Source of the DNA: Squalus acanthias
Taxonomy: Eukaryota
Direction: 5' to 3'
Assembly: GCA_030390025.1 (NCBI GenBank)
Contig: CM059432.1
Coordinates: 66,404,001-66,468,000, forward strand
DNA: 64,000 bases
Below, piece by piece: positions 10,801 through 57,637 of this stretch (position 1 is the stretch's first letter; every line of letters starts with the position of its first letter). The notes beneath the pieces were generated by a model. The model saw only the letters and a list, made by a program, of their open reading frames with translations, was not told where the DNA came from and searched no databases. Both the position numbers and the translations under genes were made by a program.

Positions 10801-11917
10801 TTGGCCTCTATAGAATGAATTGGCCTCTATAGATGTAGGGGACATTACATACTTTTTTCATTGTATTTATGTTTGATATTTTTCTCAGTGTTTTATGTTA
10901 ATTATAAATAAATGCATCAGTTGCAATAGTTTGTGAAAGCTTTTATCTATGCATAATATCTAGCATTCCAAAGTGAGTGTGATAAGTGGTCTGAGTGCCT
11001 TCATGAGAATTGCCTTACACTGCCCTAAAACTATTTGTACAATAATGTAACCTTGGGACGTAATAATAGTGCCTCCTTGTTATTGAACTAGATATTCGTG
11101 TCATTTGCACATGCCCTCACGTGTCTCTCCAATCTTTCTGAAGGCAGATCGAGAAAACACTGGGAAAGATGATACAAATTTGATGCTGTTATAACAGCAG
11201 TTATGATCTGACTCACTTAACTGAATCAGGTACAACTTACCTCCACATAATAATACAAAATAAAGAACACGCCCAGGACACCTAAAAAATGGGCTCCACG
11301 AATTTGGCAATGGGACCTCGCCTGCACAGATTGGGCGCAGACTGGACCACTGCTAGATTGATGTGCTTTGCGCCATTTGAAGCCCGTTAAATGGTTGCAA
11401 CGCACACCAATTTGTACCCCGATGTCTTTTAACTATCCTTCAGCATTCCTTATCTCCTAATCTCAGTGAAAGCCCTCACAGCTTTCCCCTTAATAAACCT
11501 GACTGCCCTTCCAGCCTTTGCTGGACCTGACTGATATTGTCTCTATTTCTTTTTTATATCTCCCTCTGTTCACGGCAAAAAGGAAGGTCTACCAGATACC
11601 TTCTGCCAAGCTCCGGGATGAGTAACTTCACACCACTGTAGCTGTGAGGTGATTTTGATGGGTCACGTTTATTTCCAACACCAGATCTCTGATTGGTCAC
11701 CTTGAAGGCAACACCTAATTTCTGATTGGTCCCCTTGGAGGACAAGACACACCCAGCAGTTTCTCTGGAATGTGTAATTAGATCCTGCCTGTCTAAGTAA
11801 TCAATGAGTTTGCCAAGTGTAATTCGAGCCATTCTGATGGCCTTGCTCCAGACAGAAGAGCTCACATAGAACAGACAGGGCTCACCCTCGTGGGTTAAGA
11901 CCTTCTCCCACCCCACA

Positions 11918-12700
11918 AACAAGTTCCTGCACTCCCCAACAACTTCCTAACCTTCCTCACACGCCCCTGAGTTTCTGACCTTTACTCTCCCCACCCAAGT
12001 TCCTGACCTTCTTCCCCTGCCTAAGTTCCTGACCTTCTCCCCCTGCCCAAGTTCCTGACCTTCTCTCCCTGCCCAAGTTCCTGACCTTCTCCCCCTGCCC
12101 AAGTTCCTGACCTTCTCTCCCCCTTACCAAGTTCCTGACCTTCTCCCCTTGCCCAAGTTCCTGACCTTCTCTCCCCCTGCCCAAGTTCCTGACCTCCCCC
12201 TTACCAAGTTCCTGACCTTCTCCCCACCCAAGTTTCTGACCTTCTCCCCTGCCCAAGTTCCTGACCTTCTCGCCCCCTACCCAAGTTCCTGACCTTCTCT
12301 CCCCCTACCCAAGTTCCTGACCTTCTCCCCCACCCAAGTTTCTGACCTTCTCTCCCTGCCCAAGTTCCTGACCTTCTCTCTCCGCCCAAGTTTCTGACCT
12401 TCTCTCCCCGCCCAAGTTCCTGACCTTCTCCCCCGCCCGAGTTCCTGACCTTCTCTCTCCCCGCCCAAGTTCCTGACCTTCTCGCCCCCTACCCAAGTTC
12501 CTGACCTTCTCTCCCCCTACCCAAGTTCCTGACCTTCTCCCCCGCCCGAGTTCCTGACCTTCTCTCTCCCCGCCCAAGTTTCTGACCTTCTCTCCCCGCC
12601 CAAGTTCCTGACCTTCTCCCCCGCCCAAGTTCCTGACCTTCTCTCCCTGCCCAAGTTCCTGACCTTCTCTCCCCGCCCAAGTTCCTGACCTCCTCTCCCC
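11918..12700. repeat. C/T-rich minisatellite with ~27-31-bp unit (CCAAGTTCCTGACCTTCTC(TC)CCC...)
   Basis: More than 20 tandem copies are visible. It explains the repetitive GRGREGQELG ORFs on the minus strand. Confidence 0.95.
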
Positions 12701-13081
12701 CCTCTGATCCCCTCTCCCCTTTTGATCCTCTCTCTCCCCCACCCATCCGGCAGAGATCCAGTGATGGGCCTCATCCCACGGAGCTGAGGAAAGCCTGGCC
12801 CACGCTGCACTGCAGGCCGCAACTGTTGGATAATGCGCATGCCCGTCCTCAGTAAACAACGTGCATGTGCAAAAGGGGATCGGGTGCGCACGCACGGCTC
12901 CGGGACACCGCACGCATGCGCAGAAGACCGCAAAAATATTTGTGCAAATAATCACTCGGATTGTGATTACTGGGACACACTGCCAAATTGCTTATTGTTT
13001 ACTGTCTTTGGGAAACAAAACTCCCATTAGCATATTAACCACCTATCGTTTCTGCCTCTTTTTTTAACTTGTGTGAAAACA

Positions 13082-16167: not shown

Positions 16168-17545
16168 GGCAAGGATTTTAATTTGGAAGCAGGTAGGGAG
16201 TGGGGGCAGATGGGAAACCTGGGAGAATGGATTTCCCTCAGGCCCTGCCAAATTTAATGGCAGGGCCTGATATACCTTTTTTTTATCTGTTTCCTGCCCG
16301 CAGCCAGCCAGATTGAGAGACTGGCTGGCTGTCGGGCGGTAGGCCTGGGGAGCAGAGAGGAGGAAGACCGGGATCACTGGAGGAGAAGGAAAACTGGCAT
16401 CTTCGGAGACGGTGGTAGGCCGGAATCGCCGGAGGTGGCTGAATGCCGGGATCGTCGATGGAGTAGGAAGACCGGGATGTTCGGAGGTGGTAAAAGGCCA
16501 GGATTTTCGGAGGTGGTGGAAGGCCGGGATCTTCAGAGGAGGAGGAAGGCCAGGATCGTTGCGGGGCGGGGGTGTCGGAAAGCCGGGAGCGGGGGGAGGG
16601 TTTGGAGATCAGGAGGGTGCACAGTGATCAGTCCGAGGGGAAGATTGGAGATGGGATGGGGGTGGGGGGGCAGATTGGAGGCCTTGGGTGTGGGGAGTTG
16701 GAGGCCTTGGGGGGGATCGGAGGCCTCGGGGGGCAGATCGGAGGCCTGGGGTGGGGGGGGCAGATTGGAGGCCTTGGGTGTGGGGAGTTGGAGGCCTCGG
16801 GGGGCAGATCGGAGGCCTGGGGTGGGGGGGCAGATCGGAGGCCTTGGGGGGATTCGGAGGCCTCAGGGGGGCAATCGGAGGCCAGGGGTGTGGGGAGTTG
16901 AAGGCCTCGGGGGGGATCGGAGGCCTCGGGGGGCAGATCGGAGGCCTGGGGTGGGGGGGCAGATCGGAGGCCTTGGGGGGATTCGGAGGCCTCAGGGGGG
17001 CGGATCGGAGGCCAGGGTGGGGGGATTCGGAGGTCTTGGGGGGGATCGGAGGCCTCAGGGGGGCGGATTGGAGGCCAGGGTGGGGGGATTCGGAGGCCTT
17101 GGGGGGTTCGGAGGCCTCAGGGGGGTGGATCGGAGGCCAGGGTGGGGGGATTCGGAGGCCTCAGAGGGAAGGTCGGGGGCAAATCGAAAGGCACGGGGGG
17201 CATGTCCAATTGCAGGGGGTTGAACGCTGGATTCAGCAGATAAGTGGAAAGGCACTTACCTCCGGGATCCAGGAGTCCTCGCCTTCCTTTAGCTGGCATG
17301 TTCCCTCAGGCCAGGAAAACCCGCCTGCCCACAGCTAAATTTAAAATGGTCGATCACCATGAAGCATGCAGCCTCATTATAATATTTAAATGACCAACCC
17401 ACCTCTTGGGAGCGGGTTAGATGCCCGCCGATTAAAACTGGAAGTGGGCGATTTGGATGCAGGTTGGCATCGGGATTCATATTTTTAACACTTTAACCTG
17501 CCACCCGACCCCAACCCACCCGTTTTTTGGGGATAAAATTCTCCC
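16168..17545. mobile_element. Harbinger-like MITE containing a G-rich minisatellite (about 16660-17180)
   Basis: TIRs GGCAAGGATTTTAA / ATAAAATTCTCCC. TSD ATA at 16165-16167 and 17546-17548. Internal repeats of GATCGGAGGCCT(C/G)GGGGG. Confidence 0.75.
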
Positions 17546-28730: not shown

Positions 28731-29478
28731 TCATCCACTTTTAACTCATCTACCTGATCTATTTCACTACTCAAAACTCCTCTCTAGTAACACCTCTCCC
28801 CTTGTAGGCATACCAACATACTACTTGAGGAAGGAGTGCTGCATATATTTTAGGAATTCCATTCCTTTTGCTCCATGTACTCCCTCCCTGTCCCAATCAA
28901 TGAGGGGGGTAATTAAAATCTCCTACAATAATAGTTTAATTATTCACACTCATCTCCCTGATCTGTCTGCAGATCTCCTCTTCCAATTCCCTCCCCACTA
29001 AGGCAACAATCCCTTTTTTATATTTGATCTCTAACCATATTGACTCTGTCTGAACCTCTTTTGTGTACATCAGCTCTCTCTACAGCATATATATTCCTTA
29101 TTTCAACAATATTGACATTCCTGCTCCTTTATTACCCATTATATCCTAAATATTATTATCCAACATACAGGAAACTCTTGTTTAACCGGCACCTAAATAT
29201 CCGGAATTCTCGCTTAACCTGGCAAAAATCATCCTCCAAAAACTCCTCTCAAATAACTGGCAATGTTGCCGAGTCGCAGTCCGAGTCTCCCGCGAACGCC
29301 GAGTACTCCGAAAACTGCCTCTCAAATAACCGGCAATGTTGCCGAGTCCGAGTCCGAGTCCGAGCCCGAGCCCGCGAACGCCGATTTAGTCAGTAGGGGT
29401 AGTTTTCAAAAGTGCCACTACTCGGCCTCCTGGCGCTGTCGGAAGTCCGAACAGTGCAGTAGCAGGAGTCTGATTCTC

Positions 29479-29978
29479 CCACACTGCCGGGAGTCTCTTC
29501 TGATCGGCCATTTTGCTGTGTGTCTCCCACGCTGCTGGGAGTCTCTTCTGATCCACCATTTTACTGTGTGTCTCCCACGCTGCTGGTACTGTAGTCTCTT
29601 CTGATACACCATTTTACTGTGTGTCTCCCATGCTGCTGGTACTGTAGTCTCTTCTGATACACCATTTTACTGTGTGTCTCCCACACTGCCGGGAGTCTCT
29701 TCTGATCGGCCATTTTGCTGTGTGTCTCCCACGCTGCTGGGAGTCTCTTCTGATCCACCATTTTACTGTGTGTCTCCCACGCTGCTGGTACTGTAGTCTC
29801 TTCTGATACACCATTTTACTGTGTGTCTCCCATGCTGCTGGTACTGTAGTCTCTTCTGATACACCATTTTACTGTGTGTCTCCCACGCTGCTGGAAGTCT
29901 CTTCTGATACACCATTTTACTGTGTGTCTGCCACGCTGCAGGCAGTCTCTTCCTAGCCACCATTGTTCTGTGTGTCTT
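29479..29978. repeat. Tandem array of 48/53-bp units inside the Tigger 5' region
   Basis: About 10 units of CCACGCTGC..GTCTCTTCTGAT..CCATTTTACTGTGTGTCTC. Confidence 0.95.
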
Positions 29979-30016
29979 TCCATCTTCATCGGCAATTATC
30001 TCCTCCATTTTGCATT

Positions 30017-31821
30017 ATGGAATTCCCAAAAGCTGGTCCAAGCAAAAGGAAGAGAGTGGTCTTAACTTTAAAACAGAAAATTGAGATATGCCAACGACTA
30101 GAAAGGGGAGAGAAGCGTATCAACATTATGAATGAATTCAAAATCGGTTCGTCAACAATCTACGACATCAAATCGCAGAAGGATAAGCTGCTCAAGTTTT
30201 ATTCAAGCTCGGAGACATCTAACAGTGTAGAGAAACGGCGTACGCTTCGTAAGCCTAAGCTTGAAGAGCTGGATACCGTGCTTTATGAATGGTTTTCTCT
30301 TAAGCGTTCAGAGGGTGTTCCAATTTCCGGACCCATGCTAATCGAGAAAGCGAAGGATTTCTATGTAAGGATGGAGCTCACTGACAAGTGTGCTTTCTCC
30401 GAGGGATGGCTAACGTGCTTCAAGTTACGGCACGGGATACGACGACTCGATATTTCCAGGGAGAAGAAATCAGCTGATCACGACGCCGCAGAAGAATACT
30501 GCGATTATTTCAATCGGATTGTGCAGCAACATGATTTGTCGCCAGCACAGTTATACAATGCCGATGAAACTGGCTTGTTTCGGAGGTTTTTGCCAGAATC
30601 AATGCTTGCTGGGGCTAGTGAGGCTAATGCTTCAGGTTACAATAAAAATAAAGATCGTGTAACCGTGCTAACATGTGCGAACGCCGCTGGATCACACCGG
30701 GTTAAACTTCTTGTTATCGGGAAGTATAAAAATCCCCGTGCATTTAAAAATGTGAGGCACTTACCTGTTGAGTACAAAGCTCAAAGAAATGCTTGGATGG
30801 ATACGGAAATCTTCTCCGATTTGTTCCATCATATTTTTGTTCCATCTGTGAGGGAACATTTCTTAAAATAGGGAAACCTGAAGATAGCAAATGCATTTTA
30901 TTGCTTGATAATTGTAGAGCCCATCCGCATGAATCCGAGTTGGTTTCGGGAAATATTTTCACCATTTATTTGCCACCCAATGTAACTTCTCTCATCCAAC
31001 CCATGGACCAGGGCGTTATCCAAAATCTGAAGTGTCATTACAAGAAAGACTTCCTACGTAAACTGATAAGCCAAGATGACAATATTCAAGAATTTCAGAA
31101 GGAATACAATATTAAAGATGCCATCTATAATGTTGCATGTTCCTGGAAATTGGTGAAAGGTCACACTCTGAGGCAAGCCTGGCGCAAGTTGTGGCCTTCT
31201 GTAATGTTTGCTGAAGGTTCTTCTTCAGAGGAGGAATTTCATGGGTTCAATGTTCATTCCAAGAAGAGTACAATAATGGAAATGGCTGGCATGGTGAAAA
31301 ATGTAGGCCCAGCAAACCCTCTACATCACCTCAGTGAAAGTGATATCGAGCAGTGGGTTGATGCAGATAGAGAAGTTGGTGTTGTGCATATGCTAAGTGA
31401 TGATGAAATAATTGAGAATGTTTTGAATCCAAAGAAAGAAAAGGAAAGTGAGATGGAAAGTGAAGAGGATGATATTTCTGAAGAAGAGAAGATTTCTTGG
31501 GCTAAAGCTGCAGAAGGATTATCTTCATTCCTCAAATTTGCTGAAAGGCAGACTTGCTACTCTGCCCAAGAAGTTATGCAACTCCATATTCTGCATTCCA
31601 CCTTTCTACAGAAAAGGCAAGAGTCCACTAAGCAAACCGACATCCGCAACATGTTTAAGAAAGCTTCCAAAAGAGTCGCAGCAGCGGAAGTGCCTGAAGA
31701 ATCTGTGGCATCTGTGGAACTGCGTGTTCCTGGTGACCCAGCTGGACGGATATTCCTGATGAACCAGATGACTCGGAATAAGTGTACAGTCAACTACAGT
31801 ACTGTATACAGTCGTTTATAA
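30017..31821 (+). pseudogene. Tigger/Jerky-like DD32D transposase (CENP-B-type HTHs plus DDE_1), frameshifted near 30865
   Basis: [36 protein letters not shown]; catalytic [14 protein letters not shown] and QPMDQG with 32 aa between D2 and D3. Two overlapping ORFs (to 30871 and 30793-31821). A probable second frameshift near 31745 would put the natural stop at about 31781. Confidence 0.92.
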
Positions 31822-32911: not shown

Positions 32912-35282
32912 GGAGGAGAAATTCGCACCATTTATTACTTGCACCAGCCCCGTTTGGGGCGCTAAAACTTTAAAAGTTGAAGAATTAGCGCCAGGCTCTA
33001 ATCATTGTCGACTCCTGCGAAATTCATTGTTACAGCTCCAAGAGGGAAGTGGAGCACTAAAACAAGCGCAACACTCCTAACTTAGGGCGCTAACCTCTGA
33101 GAGCGGGGCGCTACCGGCAGAGCGATAAAGAAGGTCATGCGCAGTCCAAACGGCATTCTTTAATCACACAGGCTGCTTCCATCTCTTAAAGGGAAGGGCT
33201 AATCCCGCTGTATAGCCTCATAGTCATCAGTGGTGTTTTCCAACATGACCTGGGCGACTGCCATTGCAGCCCCCATCACTTTCAGAAAGTAGAGCATTTG
33301 GAGATGTTTGAGGAAAAGTGTAAAAAAAATTTGCACAGGCTGGTGCAAGTAATAAATGGTGCGGTCACTGAAGGCGCCTTTTTCGCGATGTTCAAGCAAC
33401 ACGGAAGCATTCCCTTTAATTACCACACCTGCAGCGCACTTCCGAGTGCACAACACCTCCTCTTACTGGCGTTGTTGGCGCAAGGCGCTAAAGCAGGGTA
33501 CTGAAGGAGGTGGCCCGAGAGATAGCGGATGCACTAAGTATGATTTTTCAGAATTCATTAGACTCGGGAACAGTGCCCATGGATTGGAGGGTAGCTAACG
33601 TTACCCCACTATTCAAAAAGGGGGGTAGGGAAAAAGCAGGTAATTACAGACCTGTAAGCCTTACATCAGTTGTGGGCAAAATGCTGGAGTCCATCATTAA
33701 GGATGAAATAGCGGAGCACTGAGCAAATGGGGACAGGATAGGACAGAGTCAACATGGATTTACAAAGGGTAAATCGTGCTTGACTAATCTATTGGAATTT
33801 TTTGAGGGAGTAACTGGTAAAATAGATGGGGGAGAGCCAGTAGATGTGGTGTACCTGGACTTCCAAAAGGCCTTCAACAAGGTCCCACATAAAAGATTAG
33901 CATGGAAAATTGAAGCTCATGGGATAAAGGGGAAAGTATTGACGTGGATAGAGAACTGGCTGTCAGATAGAAAACAGAGAGTTGGAATAAACGGCTCATT
34001 TTCTGAATGGCAGGCAGTAACAAGTGGGGTACCACAGGGATCTGTCCTGGGTCCCCAGCTGTTCACAATTTACATTAATGACCTGGATCAGGGAGTCGGA
34101 TGCAGCATTTCCAAATTTGCAGACGACACTAAACTAGGAGGGGGGGTGGGCTCAGAGGAGGAGACCAGGAAGCTCCAGAGCGATTTGGACAGACTGGGTG
34201 ATTGGGCGGATAAATGGCAGATGCACTATAATGTGGACAAGTGCGAAGTTATCCACCTTGGGTGCAGGAACGGGAGGGCAAATTATTATTTAAATGGCAA
34301 TAAATTGGGAGAGGGGGAAGTACAGAGAGACCTGGGTGTTCTTGTACACCAGTCACTGAAGGCGAGCATGCAGGTGCAACAGGCGGTCAAGAAGGCAAAC
34401 GGTATGCTGGCCTTCATAGCAAAAGGGTTGGAATACAGGAACAGGGATACCTTGCTGCAGCTGTACAGGGCACTGGTGAGACCACACCTCGAGTACTGTG
34501 TACAGTTTTGGTCGCCTCATCTGAGGAAAGATGTTCTTGCCATGGAGGGGGTGCAGCGGCGATTCACCAGGCTGATACCAGGAATGGCGGGATTGACCTA
34601 TGAGGAGAGACTATGTAGTTTAGGGATGTACACACTGGAGTTTAGAAGATTGAGAGGGGACCTCATAGAAGTGTATAAAATTCTGACAGGTCTAGACAGA
34701 CTAGATGCAGAAGGAATGTTTCCCTTGGTGGGTGAGAACAGAACTAGAGGACATAATTTAAGGATAAGGGCTAAACCATTTAGGACAGAAATGAGGGGGA
34801 ATTTCTTCACTCAGAGGGTGGTGAACCTGTGGAACTCATTGCCACAGAGGGCAGTGTACGCCAGCTCATTAAATATATTTAAGAGGGAATTAGATATATT
34901 TCTACAAGCAAAAGGGGTTAAGGGTTACGGAGAGAAGGCGGGGACGGGATACTGAATTGGAGGATCAGCCATGATCTCATTAAATGGCGGAGCAGGCTCG
35001 AAGGGCCGGATGGCCTACTCCTGCTCCTATCTTCTATGTATCTACGTATCTATGAAAGGCAATTTTGTATCGAGGCTGTTAACGGGGCGTTGCACACGCA
35101 TTTACGTCATCATGTGAGAGGTGCCAGAGGCCTAGGCGCTAACAGTCAGCGACGGCGCTAATTCACCACTGAAGGTTGCGTGCAGCGTTGGATTTGCCGC
35201 GGCCGGGTGCTCACCCCTTAGCTCCCCATAGCCCCCCCACCAGGTGCTAACGGGAGGCGCTAACCTACCGAATTTTGATGCC
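32912..35282. mobile_element. Harbinger-like MITE related to 9820-10588, split by a CR1 insertion
   Basis: Left GGAGGAGAAATTCG, right CGAATTTTGATGCC. Shares GCTCCAAGAGGGAAGTGGAGC and TTAGCGCC motifs with the 9820 element. Confidence 0.55.
33494..35054 (+). mobile_element. Relatively young 5'-truncated CR1 (RT domain to 3' tail)
   Basis: ORFs 33510-33722 and 33780-34955 are in the same frame, separated by one TGA. Intact YLDFQKAF, GVPQGSVLGP and FADDTKL. 3' UTR and (TCTATGTA)n tail. Confidence 0.95.
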
Positions 35283-44000: not shown

Positions 44001-44694
44001 TATTTCTAATGGCTTTGGGTCAAAATGGTCCTCGAGTTTCATGACAATGTCTTCAAATGACGCATCCTTCACTTTTCCTGGCGTGAGTAGGTTTGTCAAA
44101 GTTCTGTAGACTTCTGTAGACATTTTCCATTAGAAAAATTGCTTTTTTACACAAATTACTTTATTTAGAGCTTGAACATTCAAATCTGCACCTTCGGTCT
44201 CAATAATGTTATTGGCCCTAAAAATCATCTCCATCCACTCAATGTAAGAACTGAATGGTTCACGAGCTCGGTCATACATGCCGAGGCTTCCGATGAATCC
44301 TGTAGGCACGGCCATGATTGTCCTAATCCCGTTGAACAGTGACTCAGCACGCCACTTGTGTACCTGTGAGAATCAACGCCGCTGTTGCTGTGTATACATA
44401 CATGTAAAGGTGAAGCACAGATGATTCTGCATGAACATTAACGGTAAAGCATTGCAAAAATTCAGTTTAGGTATCACAAATTCACCTTAAACTTGTCCAT
44501 TCAAAGGTTAACACTTTGTCCTTCCATGATCCCTAAAAATGGCTTTGGGATACCATCCTCATTGCCAAAATGTAATATACTTGGGTAGAACAAATGAAGG
44601 ACAGAGACACGATGAGTTGCTAGTCCATGTGGTTGTTTATTAGGCCAGAGCGAACTGAGCATGCTCATACCAAACCTCGTGATAATACATTACA
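41043..44694 (-). mobile_element. Degenerate Ty3/Gypsy LTR retrotransposon with most of the integrase deleted
   Basis: LTRs 41043-41167 and 44571-44694 (TG...CA). TSD GTACC/GTGCC. PBS TGGCAATGAGGATGGTAT (44550-44567) matches the tRNA-Ser(GCU) 3' end with CpG decay. PPT AGGGGGAAAGCAG. Fragmented gag (two CCHC knuckles), protease, RT-RH (VRLCGDYK, LACDASSY) and HHCC. Confidence 0.93.
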
Positions 44695-44831: not shown

Positions 44832-47800
44832 TGTCATAAGAATGAGCCTTACGCGTGGTGAACTTAAAGTAAGCTTTAATCAACTAAAAAGGTGCTACAT
44901 ACAAAAGAGGTCTTACTCTATGCCTCTCCAGGATCCAACTGATCAGCCCAGTATTTATCCTGGACTAATCACAGGAAGTGATGTAATAAAGTTCAAGTCA
45001 CAGGAAGCTGTATTGTGTTACCACATTCTCCCCCCCCAAAAGATTAGGAGGCCGGGATGAAGTTTGAGTCACAGGAAGCTGTATTGTGTTACCACATTCT
45101 CCCTCCATTTCGTAGCCGCTGGACGAGGGAGAGCCGCACCCGTTTGGGTTCTCGTAGCGGTAGAGGGCCCCTAGCCCGTTTACCCGCCGCGGGCCGTGGA
45201 CCAGAGTCCGAGTGATCCAGCCCATTCTGTGAGGGGTCAGGACGATCCTGACTGTGTACTGGTGCCCGAACGGGTGTCGGGCAGGGCTGTGGCAGATCCG
45301 TTTCCGAGCGTATGGTACGGGGTGGATCGTGGCTGCGCGTGCGAGCCCCGACGGGCTCATAGTCAGTCTGCCCCAGGTCGGCACGCTGGAGTGAGGTACC
45401 AGCCGGCGTCAGATCCAGATCGTGATGAGAGGCACCTGGCGAGCCCAGAGATGTGCCTGGTACAATATCATCCCCTGGTGTCCCTCTATGTTTCGGCGGG
45501 CAGGAAGCCAGATCCCGCAATGACACGGTAGATTCCCGACCGTCAGGATACCGAATATAGGCGTAGGTAGGGTTGACGTCAGTGAGCTCAACCTCATCTA
45601 CCAGGGGGTCATTCTTAGACGCCCGAACATATCTTCGGAGTAGCACTGGTCCCGGTGCAGTCAGCCACGACGGGAGAGATATCCCATAGGATGAGCGACG
45701 CTGAAATCGGAAGAACCGTTCATGAGGCGTCGTATTTGTGGCGGTCGAAAGGAGGGACCGTGTGGAGTGTAATGCGTCTGGAAGTACTGCTTCCCATTGC
45801 TGGTTGGGTAGGCCCCGAGATCTCAAAGCCAGACGTACCGCATTCCAGATGATAGCGTTAAAACGCTCGACTTGCCCATTCCCGACCGGATGATAAGGCA
45901 TCGTTCTGCTGGCAGCAATACCCCGTTCCGAGAGATAGGCCTTGAGTTCTCCTGACATAAAAGAAGGGCCCCGATCCGAATGAACATAGGATGCCATGCC
46001 ACAGAAAGCAAATACCTGCTCAAGGCAGCTGATAACCGTGGTCGTCAGCATATTGGGGCAGGGAAAGGCAAACGGAAAACGGGAATACTCATCGACCATG
46101 GTCAATAGATAAGTGTTGCGAGTTGAAGAGGGCAACGGCCCCTTAAAATCGATGCTAAGCCGTTGCATTGGCTGGGTCGCATGTATGAGTATACCACCCG
46201 AGGGGCGGAAAAACTGAGGTTTCAATTCCGCACAGACTCTGCAGTCCGAGCACATCTTCTTTACATCCCCGGTAGAGAATGGGAGATTTCGGGACCGCAC
46301 GAAGTGTAGCATGCGAGTAACGCCCGGATGACACAACCCATCATGGATGTCTACGAGCGTAGAGGGTACCATGGCGGAGCAGAATGCTCTTGTGAGGGTA
46401 TCCGGAGCCACATTCTCCTTGCCAGGTCGATAGTGGATGGTGTAACCAAAAGAGGCCAATTCCAGCCGCCAAAGCTGGATTTTATTATTTTTAATTTTGG
46501 TCCGTTTTCGATTATCGAGCATGAAGGCGACCGATCGCTGGTCCGTGATTAAGGTAAAGTGCTGGCGAGCTAGGAGATGAGTCCACTTCCGTACTGCCTC
46601 TATGATGGCTGTAGCTTCTTTCTCGACTGGAGGATAATGTAGCTCAGCCCCTTGAAAAGTCCTGGACAAAAATGTCACCGGACGACCTTCCTGATTCAGA
46701 GTGGCCGAGATCGCCACCTCCGAGGATTCACACTCAACAACAAAAGGAAGACTCTCATCGATGGAGTGAAGAGCCGCTTTCTCCAACTGTTTTTTCAGGA
46801 GGTTAAAGGCTGCAACAGCCGCTGTGTCTAGTGGGAATGTGCTGGCCTTCAGTAGAGGTTGGATTCGGTCCGAGAAGTTAGGAATCCATTTAGCATAGTA
46901 TGCAAACAGGCCGAGGGCCCGGCGCAAGGAGGCCGGATTCTTAGGTGGCGGGAGTTTTTGGAGTGGGCGAAGCCTTTCAGGGTCAGGTTTAATGATGCCA
47001 TTGCCCACACAATAGCCAAGGATGTTGATGGTTGGTTGTGACTCAATGGATTTAGCCGCATTTAATGTCAAATTACGGTGCTGGAGTGCATCCCAAAATC
47101 GTTGGAGATTGGCGTCATGTTCCCGCTGATTGCGACCTGTGACAGTAATATTGTCCAGATAAGGAAACGTATCCTTTAAGTCTTCCTGTTTGACCAGGTC
47201 ATCCATTGCTCGCTGGAAGACAGCCACTCCATTAGTGACCCCAAAGGGGAGGCGACGAAATTGATACAGCTGTCCATTGGCTTCAAAGGCCGTATACTGC
47301 TTGTCTGAGACCTTCAAGGGTACCTGATGATAGGCACTTTTCAGATCATATGTTGAGAACACCGTGTACTCAGCCAGTTTATTAACCATATCATCGATGC
47401 GCGGCAATGGGTATGCGTCCAAGTCCGTATATTGATTGATGGTCTGTGAATAGTCAATGCACAGCCGTTTCTTGTGAGGTTGTAGAGGGTTCTTAACAAT
47501 AACGACCTGGGCGCGCCATGGCGACGAACAAGGCTCGATGATATCCTTTGCTAAAAGCCGAGAAATCTCAGCCGCAATAAAAGACTGGTCTTCCTGACTG
47601 AAACGTCGTGACTTTGTTATAATCGGTTTGCATCGAGGACGGATACTGGTAAACAGTGAGGATTCATCCAGTGAAGCTGCTGACAATGCACAGAACGGTA
47701 ATCGAGGTTGTATATTAGAAATAGTGAGTTCAGGTTTGGATCCGCCGAACTCAATGGTGAGCTTCTTATGCTGCTTTTGAAAATCTAGCCCTAAGATAAG

Positions 47801-49311
47801 ATCACTACATAAGTCCTTGAGCACCGAAAGCCGGGTGGAGGGATACCTGTGACCATTAAGTGTTATTTCAACCATACAAAAGCCAGAAATTCTGGTATTA
47901 AGTGATGACTGAGCCATCGCAATTGCCTGGTCCGATGGGAAAACATGTAGCTTTAACTCTGCAACAATCTGTTCCCTAATGAAACTATCAGTGCTACCTG
48001 AGTCAATTAAGGCATCTAAAGTATGTCCATTAATTGATGCTTTTGTAGCTGCATGGAATAGGTTCTGAGGACAAGCAGCTGTAATTGGTGTCGTTGCACA
48101 AAGAGTGGCTGAAACTCTAGGTGTGTTTCTTCGAGAGAAAACCCGAGAGGAAGCACGATAGATTTTAGCCGGAACATCTTGATAGGCCCTTACCGGGGCA
48201 GTTCGGTAGGACTTAGCTTGATAAGCCCTCGTAGAGGCTCTTGATAGGCAAACCTTTGCAAAATGACCCTTTTTGTTGCAATGACTGCAAAACGCATTGC
48301 GAGCAGGGCAGAATTTCCGAGGGTGAAACTCATCACCACAAAAGAAGCATTTCTTAGATTGCCAAGAGGCTGCCACAGTGGGGTCATCATCCTCTTCATC
48401 AGTGAAGTCATCAGATTGATCGTCAGGGATAAAGTCCTCCCTAATAGAGTTCACCTGTGGCCTCTTAAATTGCCTGACTGTAGTTAAGGCAGCAGACCGA
48501 GGTCTGGGCACTGTATAAAGGTCTGCATTTCTTTTTGCCAGATCTAGAGAGCAAGCCATGTCATAAGCTCTCTGAAGCTCAAGTGTCTTACTTTCCAGTA
48601 GATGTTGGCGTATAAATGGGGAGGCAAGCCCGCAGATGAAAGCATCACGGATCATTTCTTCACGGTACAGCTCAGCTGAGGCCGCCTGAAAGTTACAGTC
48701 CATACTAAGTCTGCGAAGCTCTTGGAGGAATTTATCAATGGATTCCTCCGGCCCTTGTTGGGCTGTAGCTAGTAGATGTCTGGCATAGACCTCATTCGGT
48801 GTCTTAGTATATAGTCTTTTAAGCGTCCGAATTGCCTCCTCGTAACTGCCCCATTCCTCGACATACTGAAATACATTCGGGGTGACACAGTTGATGAGTA
48901 TCCGCAATTTTGAGTCATCATCAGCCTTGCAATATTCGAGAAAATTGTCAAACGTGCGATACCAGTGTTTCCACACCTTACCGGCTGCTGGGGTGTTTGG
49001 GTCCAAGTCAAGACGCGATGGTTTAAGGATGTTTTCCATGATGGGTGATTCCCTGGATCCTTAGTTCCGAGTTCGTCCAAAAAGTTTGAGTGCGAAGTTT
49101 TTCAAAGTTGATTAAATTGTCGTAAGAATGAGCCTTACGCGTGGTGAACTTAAAGTAAGCTTTAATCAACTAAAAAGGTGCTACATACAAAAGAGGTCTT
49201 ACTCTATGCCTCTCCAGGATCCAACTGATCAGCCCAGTATTTATCCTGGACTAATCACAGGAAGTGATGTAATAAAGTTCAAGTCACAGGAAGCTGTATT
49301 GTGTTACCATA
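44832..49311 (-). mobile_element. Young full-length Ty3/Gypsy LTR retrotransposon
   Basis: 194-bp LTRs 44832-45025 and 49118-49311 with 2 mismatches. 5-bp TSD CCCCA at 44827-44831 and 49312-49316. PPT GGGGGGGGAGAA at 45026-45037. Confidence 0.97.
45089..49039 (-). CDS. Single-ORF Gag-Pol polyprotein, 1316 aa (Gag with two zinc knuckles, protease, RT, RNase H, integrase)
   Basis: CFFCGDEFHPRKFC and CSHCNKKGHFAKVC; LIDSGS; RLCIDY, YDLKSAYHQ, LPFG, YLDN; EKEATA, TDQRS; HDGLCH..CRVC; SIDFKGP, HSDRG, GNGQVER. Domain order PR-RT-RH-IN. Confidence 0.96.
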   Translation of the reverse strand: MENILKPSRLDLDPNTPAAGKVWKHWYRTFDNFLEYCKADDDSKLRILINCVTPNVFQYVEEWGSYEEAIRTLKRLYTKTPNEVYARHLLATAQQGPEESIDKFLQELRRLSMDCNFQAASAELYREEMIRDAFICGLASPFIRQHLLESKTLELQRAYDMACSLDLAKRNADLYTVPRPRSAALTTVRQFKRPQVNSIREDFIPDDQSDDFTDEEDDDPTVAASWQSKKCFFCGDEFHPRKFCPARNAFCSHCNKKGHFAKVCLSRASTRAYQAKSYRTAPVRAYQDVPAKIYRASSRVFSRRNTPRVSATLCATTPITAACPQNLFHAATKASINGHTLDALIDSGSTDSFIREQIVAELKLHVFPSDQAIAMAQSSLNTRISGFCMVEITLNGHRYPSTRLSVLKDLCSDLILGLDFQKQHKKLTIEFGGSKPELTISNIQPRLPFCALSAASLDESSLFTSIRPRCKPIITKSRRFSQEDQSFIAAEISRLLAKDIIEPCSSPWRAQVVIVKNPLQPHKKRLCIDYSQTINQYTDLDAYPLPRIDDMVNKLAEYTVFSTYDLKSAYHQVPLKVSDKQYTAFEANGQLYQFRRLPFGVTNGVAVFQRAMDDLVKQEDLKDTFPYLDNITVTGRNQREHDANLQRFWDALQHRNLTLNAAKSIESQPTINILGYCVGNGIIKPDPERLRPLQKLPPPKNPASLRRALGLFAYYAKWIPNFSDRIQPLLKASTFPLDTAAVAAFNLLKKQLEKAALHSIDESLPFVVECESSEVAISATLNQEGRPVTFLSRTFQGAELHYPPVEKEATAIIEAVRKWTHLLARQHFTLITDQRSVAFMLDNRKRTKIKNNKIQLWRLELASFGYTIHYRPGKENVAPDTLTRAFCSAMVPSTLVDIHDGLCHPGVTRMLHFVRSRNLPFSTGDVKKMCSDCRVCAELKPQFFRPSGGILIHATQPMQRLSIDFKGPLPSSTRNTYLLTMVDEYSRFPFAFPCPNMLTTTVISCLEQVFAFCGMASYVHSDRGPSFMSGELKAYLSERGIAASRTMPYHPVGNGQVERFNAIIWNAVRLALRSRGLPNQQWEAVLPDALHSTRSLLSTATNTTPHERFFRFQRRSSYGISLPSWLTAPGPVLLRRYVRASKNDPLVDEVELTDVNPTYAYIRYPDGRESTVSLRDLASCPPKHRGTPGDDIVPGTSLGSPGASHHDLDLTPAGTSLQRADLGQTDYEPVGARTRSHDPPRTIRSETDLPQPCPTPVRAPVHSQDRPDPSQNGLDHSDSGPRPAAGKRARGPLPLREPKRVRLSLVQRLRNGGRMW

Positions 49312-56508: not shown

Positions 56509-57637
56509 TTAAGTAAATCTGGACGTGATGAGGCCATCCCTGGCCTCTCGGGCAGCAATGTGCTCCGGTGCTGCTGGCATCTGGCCCTCAGGTTCCTCCT
56601 GTTCCTCCTCCTCGTCTTCCAGCTGATGCTCCTCCTCCTCCTCCTCCTCTGAAGAGGCTGTGCGCTCAGTGCCTTGCTCCTCATGCAGCACTAATCCTCG
56701 TTGCTGCACTATGTTGTACAATGCGCAGCAGACGACAACGATTCTGGATACCCTGGCTCGTGCGTACTAAAGATCCATATCTGTCAAGGCATCTGAAGCG
56801 TATTTTCAGTATGCGTATTGTTTGGTCTATGACACATCTGGTGGACAAGTGACTTTCATTATATCTCTCCTCGGCCTCAGTACTTGGCCTCCTCAAGGAT
56901 GTCATAAGCCATGTTCTCAGTGATAGCCCTTGTCTCCAAGCAGCCAGCCGGTAAGTGTGTTTGGAGGTGTGAAGAGCTGAGGGAGGGTGGACTGGTGCAG
57001 GACGAAAGAGTCATGAGAGCTGCCAGAGAATTTGGCGCACACATGCATAATCATCTTTTTATGGTTGTAGACGAGCTGCACATTGAGGGAGTGGAAGCCC
57101 TTGCAGTTCACAAACACTCCTAGGTGATGATGAGGTGCCCTGATGGCCTCATGTATGCAGTCGATAATGCCCTGCACCCATGGGAAGCCAGCCAGAGCAA
57201 CAAAGTCCAGTGCCCGCTCAGTAACATGGGCTTCATCAGTGGCAAAGTTAATATAATTGGCTGACTTGTCAAACATGGCATCGGTGACCTGTGTGATGGA
57301 TCTGTGGGTGGCTGACTGAGATCCCGCAAATGTCTGCTGCAGTTGCTGGAAGGAGCCTGAGGCGAAGAGGTTGAGGGCGCTGGTGACCTTGACAGCCACT
57401 GGTAAGGCATGTCCACCAGGTTCTCTGGGCTGCAGGTCTAGTTCCAGTAAGCTGCAAATGTCTGCGACAACCTGGTGCAATAGCCTAAGCCTCCTTTGGC
57501 ACTGCTGCTTTGTGATGTTGAGGAAGCTCAGCCTCTGCCTGTATACCCTGTGTTGGGGGTATCACCTCCGGCAAGGTGCAGCCCTGCGCTGATGCCCTCT
57601 GTCCTGTGGAGCATCAGGTCATTGAGGAGAAGGTTAT

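Follow-up and report, generated by a model that had tools for sequence, protein, structure and literature searches.

A young Ty3/Gypsy retrotransposon in the genome of Squalus acanthias is very likely to prime minus-strand DNA synthesis with its own RNA. The element lies in a stretch of 64,000 nucleotides (assembly GCA_030390025.1, contig CM059432.1, positions 66,404,001 to 66,468,000), which we refer to as the window and to which all coordinates below apply. A previous sequence-only reading of the window had proposed tRNA-free self-priming outside the chromoviruses, and this proposal is supported by covariation between the primer-binding position (PBS) and an LTR arm in 35 families, by a tree of reverse transcriptase (RT) and RNase H sequences, and by aberrant insertions in which the arm is joined to minus-strand DNA. 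Judging from these comparisons, we conclude that the PBS-LTR pairing is real, conserved and very probably functional.

Structure and surroundings of the element

The element, which represents family A of this genome, and the PBS of its neighbour have the following features.

49311-44832, minus strand: whole element, with 194-bp LTRs, a target duplication and a 1316-aa frame
49118..49311, minus strand: 5' LTR, 194 bp, ending in CA, with 2 mismatches relative to the 3' LTR
49244-49238, minus strand: TATA-like box ATAAATA, 67 nt above the arm
49161..49171, minus strand: putative primer arm, LTR nt 141-151, terminating in an ATTAAA hexamer
49148..49160, minus strand: small hairpin beginning at the first base past the arm, predicted by folding
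49121..49139, minus strand: U5 hairpin of family A, predicted by folding
49117, minus strand: one-base spacer (A) after the CA of the LTR
49106..49116, minus strand: primer-binding position, complementary to the arm, no TGG
45089..49039, minus strand: single gag-pol frame of 1316 aa (Gag, protease, RT, RNase H, integrase)
45057..45105, minus strand: second purine tract and partial copy of the LTR start
45026..45037, minus strand: polypurine tract adjoining the 3' LTR
44885-44875, minus strand: second copy of the arm, in the 3' LTR, a candidate primer source
44832..45025, minus strand: 3' LTR; TGGGG target duplication (5-bp) on both flanks of the element
44550..44567, minus strand: decayed tRNA-Ser PBS of the neighbouring Gypsy element, 3 nt after its LTR (about 44694-44571)

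The paired LTRs, the purine tract and the target duplication are those of a Ty3/Gypsy LTR retrotransposon, and a profile search recovered the domain order protease-RT-RNase H-integrase that marks this group, with Ty3 as the best solved relative. The TATA-like box, which also occurs in families B and C of the same genome, had been placed about 65-70 nt from the arm, in agreement with the 67 nt measured. No chromodomain was recognised by Pfam at E values up to 1 in the C-terminal 183 aa, nor was one matched across the whole frame, and a Tf2-type SH3 domain found no match in the 1316-aa frame. A possible intron within the LTR was discarded by eye (33 nt, not conserved), and a search for polyadenylated retrocopies that could map the poly(A) site gave none at +15 to +25.

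Several variations in the layout of family A were observed. In three of four other copies (L232-L235), the upper purine tract and a partial LTR start lie 71 nt above the true one, and in the fourth the 3' LTR follows directly after the upper tract, which suggests that both purine tracts are usable. A head-to-tail array of family-A elements shares single LTRs with a period of 4,247 nt (L238, L239; G000:C1:561800-575600). Furthermore, four runs from two organisms contain a variant, shorter LTR whose changes relative to window positions 49309-49116 flank the arm, with none inside it.

The neighbouring Gypsy element (window 44694-41043) is decayed, has short LTRs and is presumably Mag-like. The sequence-only reading had used its tRNA-Ser PBS as an internal control, which holds because 15 of 18 bases match the 3' end of host tRNA-Ser(GCT) even though the site is decayed. 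Elsewhere in the window are a Tigger/pogo-type transposase with CENP-B, Tc5 HTH and DDE_1 domains in two overlapping frames (29957-31821, plus strand), a DDE_Tnp_4 transposase piece (56917-57561, minus strand), an RT piece of a probable LINE (33723-34955, plus strand) and minisatellite arrays at 11900-12750, 16300-17200 and 29440-29980 with units of about 26, 21-27 and 48-53 nt. Large tandem tRNA arrays were also seen in the genome (G000:C26:38.9-41.9 Mb; C29, C2208), with a tRNA-Ser-type sequence every 1.62 kb and tRNA-Lys about every 1.78 kb.

The PBS is complementary to an arm of the LTR

The CA that ends the 5' LTR at 49118 is followed by one A (49117) and then by TTTAATCAACT (49116-49106), which is the exact complement of LTR positions 49171-49161, just as the sequence-only reading had described. 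The element does not have a TGG PBS that matches a tRNA 3' end, as would be expected of Mag or CsRN1. An 86-nt stretch folded into a three-way junction (z = -3.4) that none of 200 shuffles equalled in stability, and folds of 111-186-nt stretches were unremarkable (z -0.2 to -1.1). The score of the anchored 11-bp pairing was reached by none of 20 shuffles.

Family A comprises 3,865 LTR matches and 1,813 exact junction matches in the genome. The arm and PBS were unchanged in 30 of 30 copies examined, which as the best matches form a selected set, and these copies together with the exact junctions rule out a local rearrangement of this copy; the appearance of a TGG PBS in other copies, which would have counted against the proposal, was likewise not seen. 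The additional five U:A pairs proposed to form after a bulge are present in this copy but are not conserved, as a G interrupts the A run in many copies, the U run is replaced in a variant LTR, and the extension is absent from families B and C. Compensating changes in the 5' LTR were found in none of 15 family-A copies with variants at PBS positions 4-11, the only positions considered, which indicates that primer-templated PBS repair was not seen within family A and weighs against self-priming.

Covariation among relatives

Gag homologues of about 1,200 aa were found in crustaceans, a cnidarian, a mollusc, a flatworm and moths. No relatives were found among viral contigs, a protein search of the element's own genome returned the same family alone, the ESM Atlas gave generic Gag clusters and nothing more specific, and a search with Pfam PF24626, intended to supply a sushi-type control, gave distant Gypsy elements. 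From a metagenome scan we used the best 80 of 226 confirmed stretches, of which five were left out, their upstream DNA being too short; the 75 that remained were grouped, along with the window and single copies of families B and C, into 44 families.

At least 10 Watson-Crick pairs between the PBS position and an LTR arm were present in 35 of the 44 families, 34 of which beat all 20 shuffles, so a loss of complementarity in relatives, the other outcome that would have spoken against the proposal, did not appear. The arm lies 24-76 nt upstream of the PBS position in these 35 families, and the spacer is a single base in all of them (33 A, 2 T) in a search that permitted 0-3 nt after a CA and in which one family was re-registered by one base by hand. 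The LTR end was set independently by the direct repeat wherever both LTRs were present. The 35 families contain 32 distinct 11-mers, with a mean pairing of 10.7 of 11 with their own LTR as compared with 7.4 with the LTRs of other families, which indicates that no single tRNA explains the pairing. For 16 chosen positive families, 95% of cells were paired and 10 of 13 pairs had changed on both sides, a result reached by none of 500 shuffles and only weakly by slid controls. Compensatory change in relatives, which the sequence-only reading had set as a check, is thus seen.

Within family C, subfamilies exchange C:G for T:A in the helix. Among its mixed copies with both LTRs, the odd base is only in the 5' LTR in two of three and in both LTRs, at a CpG, in the remaining one; two more mixed copies are without an LTR pair. 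As a separate observation, helix pair 10 is G-C in 32 of the 35 families while neighbouring pairs vary, which may reflect a protein contact.

The structures beside the helix are conserved to different degrees. A hairpin of at least 4 bp that starts right after the arm is enriched, as it occurs in 21 of 35 families versus 9.3 expected. A stem at the end of U5 shows no enrichment (17 of 35 versus 20.1 expected), and a leader-loop duplex is present in 13 of 28 versus 10.9 expected. That the duplexes flanking the Tf1 primer are not conserved counts against self-priming, as does the lack of pairing signal in 9 of the 44 families. Inspection by eye showed that one of these nine is without a PBS, one is without an arm, three are decayed and four have no visible LTR end; the letters CA-TGG occur somewhere upstream in three of the nine.

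The element falls in a clade apart from chromovirus proxies

In a quick RT-RNase H tree, the element and 28 other rows form one clade (SH-aLRT 100, long stem) that is separate from the sequences used as chromovirus proxies, namely plant chromovirus-like proteins and a fish chromodomain element. Forcing the clade together with the fish chromodomain element was rejected (AU p 0.02). Five rows were dropped for short matches, and the tree does not contain Tf1, sushi or Cigr-1 themselves. By its chromodomain search, its structure and its place among these proxy sequences, we judge that the element is not a member of the Tf1/sushi group, consistent with the earlier view of a different lineage.

Aberrant insertions join the arm to minus-strand DNA

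Self-priming predicts faulty cDNA in which the LTR end, spacer and PBS are followed by the complement of the sequence upstream of the arm, and we searched for junctions of this kind. In total, 23 aberrant junctions were found over three families of this genome: 3 in family A (2 from a first pattern, 1 from a second), 16 in family B as compared with 318 normal junctions, and 4 in family C, one pair of which is a duplicate. Two of three further exact matches to the second pattern in family A were set aside as ordinary copies with leader mutations.

Some of these insertions appear to record where the first DNA piece ended. All four insertions with paired 60-bp mini-LTRs, joints that have no background rate, join at LTR nt 151-155 through a 5-nt match beginning at the last base of the arm. 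Seven family-B copies run from U3 to the arm, the spacer and 18-27 nt of minus-strand U5 and then into sense U5, which restarts at the last A of the hexamer in six copies and three A's before the arm end in one; a family-C copy has the same layout with an internal piece between, and its U5 restarts at the last A. Twelve joints therefore locate the terminus of the first DNA piece where the arm ends, 11 of them within one base, and since an extra A may be untemplated, the cut is placed to within one base. The aberrant copies strongly suggest that DNA synthesis over U5 is primed from the end of the arm, where the first DNA piece also terminates. In contrast, five separate family-B insertions (L259, L261, L262, L266, L269) read through the arm and end near LTR nt 160 rather than at the cut site, which argues against self-priming; their shared end could be a start site or a cryptic integrase end. 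The remaining aberrant copies extend to LTR nt 1 or beyond the purine tract, up to 1,620 nt.

Proposed mechanism and alternative explanations

Based on these results, we propose that the LTR arm pairs with the PBS position, a step to which the covariation attests, and that the RNA would then be cut where the arm stops, either flush with the end of the poly(A)-type hexamer or one base earlier, beside the small hairpin. In the window, the inferred cut lies between 49162/49161 or 49161/49160, and if it falls one base before the helix ends, the customary 2-nt overhang beyond the CA would result. By analogy with Tf1, the cutting enzyme may be the RNase H of the element. The aberrant insertions support the next step, in which RT extends the 3' end of the arm across U5 and the first DNA piece ends at the cut site and not at a cap farther upstream. 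This piece would then be transferred to the 3' end of the RNA through the short stretch between the hexamer and the poly(A) site. With its hexamer buried, the 5' LTR may also be spared early polyadenylation.

The copy of the arm that acts as primer bears on this mechanism. In 22 of the 23 aberrant junctions the primer side contains U3, a region confined to the 3' end of the RNA, and this indicates that the 3' end is able to act as a primer, at least in a side reaction, as the sequence-only reading had allowed. Four junctions, one pair being a duplicate, pass the purine tract into internal sequence for about 250 to 1,620 nt in all, and eight copies combine a U3-bearing primer with the cut-site joint in one molecule. 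On this evidence it is possible, if doubtful, that the 3' end of the genome RNA, cut at the hexamer, is the normal primer, acting within a circle or on a dimer partner, which would be a sub-case of self-priming. R homology would then be needed little, if at all, since the first DNA piece would jump from one end to the other or to the partner RNA. However, aberrant copies record failures and need not mirror the normal route; plus-strand DNA is another possible source of U3-bearing junctions from LTR nt 1; the local 5' hairpin should be the first structure to form; and one aberrant copy has a primer side reaching no further than LTR nt 96, which lies 28 nt below the TATA-like box and would suit a capped 5' piece. 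For the clade as a whole, we consider it rather unlikely that the hexamer region at the 3' end normally anneals to the PBS, is cut and extended, and yields a first DNA piece whose joining to the 3' end takes little repeat homology or none. If it did, a single site would serve priming, 3'-end formation and strand transfer alike. Because the aberrant copies are failures, part of which may stem from plus-strand switching, we favour the 5' copy over the 3' end, and our expectation is evenly poised that the 5' copy, as a local hairpin, is the normal primer while priming from the 3' copy is a side reaction. Such a side reaction would remove the homology for transfer and leave aberrant copies behind.

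An unlikely explanation is that DNA folding back, chimeric assembly or plus-strand template switching produced the aberrant junctions; self-priming would then be supported by covariation alone. Full palindromic copies (e.g. L264, L273, L276) could arise when plus-strand DNA folds back, and an inverted repeat fixes the junction by whatever route. Part of the junctions could stem from nascent plus-strand DNA that switches templates at the 11-13-bp inverted repeat, which requires the pairing but no RNA cut. However, exact 5-bp target duplications with separate flanks were found in four of four mini-LTR copies, in 10 of 17 scored family-B and -C copies, and in L254 and L255, which indicates that the aberrant copies are integrase products and not assembly chimeras; in three more of the scored copies the duplications differ by one base, as judged by eye. 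Furthermore, a search for such junctions at two control sites, both internal 10-bp inverted repeats, yielded 0 and 0, and two of the four mini-LTR insertions carry the complement of the arm for 56 and 117 nt, yet their own LTRs are without the arm.

The association with a poly(A) signal raises a further alternative, namely that the duplex merely masks this signal in the 5' LTR while something else primes synthesis. In 20 of 35 families the last six bases of the arm are AATAAA or ATTAAA, and masking of a poly(A) signal is known in retroviruses. This alternative is nevertheless very unlikely, as the 15 families with other hexamers keep the helix, the helix begins one base past the CA in every case, at the place a primer end has to occupy, no alternative site for a primer was observed, and masking does not predict the arm/minus-strand junctions. 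Priming by a host RNA, such as a tRNA half or other small RNA, with the LTR match being secondary, is highly improbable: letters are conserved beyond pairing (the G-C at pair 10), the core 11-mer is common to families A and B and one subfamily of C, and the host tRNA set was seen in part (13 of 30 loci scanned, Lys and Cys only), but each of the 32 different 11-mers matches its own LTR, there is no TGG start, and the comparison with host tRNAs suggested by the sequence-only reading gave, for the three isotypes compared (tRNA-Ser, -Lys and -Cys), a best match of 6-7 of 11.

Significance and comparison with known systems

In the literature covered, the demonstration of self-priming is confined to fission-yeast Tf1, and the mechanism counts as a hallmark of the Tf1/sushi group. 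Our results suggest that a separate clade self-primes too, with relatives in cnidarians, molluscs, flatworms, crustaceans, insects and a vertebrate-sized genome, and with a geometry that differs from that of Tf1 and is tied to the poly(A) signal. This is significant for whether hairpin priming is ancestral or convergent, a question raised in PMC3601003. The aberrant copies also allow primer ends to be mapped for any self-priming candidate with nothing but genome sequence, and the more than 1,800 near-identical copies of family A make RNA ends easy to map in host tissue.

The single frame of about 1,200 aa and the short LTRs presumably fit Cigr-1, a likeness in layout. Cigr-1 of Ciona and the mollusc Cigr-1/MolGy clades are likewise non-chromovirus animal Gypsy elements (PMC6238403); the main text of that source makes no mention of primer binding or tRNA, and its supplements may name the clade. 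In the literature covered, which was partial and without most subscription journals, Repbase and supplements, no report of self-priming in a non-chromovirus animal Gypsy clade was found.

Self-priming is predicted for Tf1/sushi, Tcn1 and TAR elements in a set of sources that includes PMC6317226, PMC3601003, PMC6934838, PMC4600332, PMC13524379 and PMC10886601. For the TAR lineage (Houba and Osr-1, plant Ty1/copia) and the Tcn1 chromoviruses, the prediction likewise comes from PBS-LTR complementarity; these elements differ in belonging to another superfamily or clade, in having plant hosts and in being known from prediction only, and they suggest that self-priming arose more than once (PMC6317226).

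The closest likeness is with Tf1 and Tf2 of Schizosaccharomyces pombe, Tj1 of S. japonicus and the Tf1/sushi chromoviruses, which are also Ty3/Gypsy elements with a PBS complementary to about 11 nt of their own LTR and no tRNA site. Tf1 uses the first 11 bases of its RNA as primer after an RNase H cut between bases 11 and 12 (PMC7175516, PMC11042837); a cut beside the duplex is thus shown for Tf1 (PMC7175516), and we infer one here. PMC11042837 further indicates that the Tf1 primer can be copied into the cDNA end, another point of likeness, and describes tandem Tf1/Tf2 insertions, which the head-to-tail array of family A resembles. Unlike the Tf1/sushi group, our element is without a chromodomain and falls in a separate RT clade relative to the proxy sequences. 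The three-duplex "pretzel" structure of Tf1 (PMC10085805) is not conserved in this clade, in which the hairpin right after the arm is conserved instead. The Tf1 primer is the extreme 5' end of the RNA; for the primer here, the TATA-like box upstream of the arm and the aberrant copies, most of whose primer sides reach U3, argue against such a position. Taken together, these comparisons suggest that the self-priming route of this clade is Tf1-like in its working and differs from the yeast case in geometry, and that it appears to be a variant linked to the poly(A) signal.
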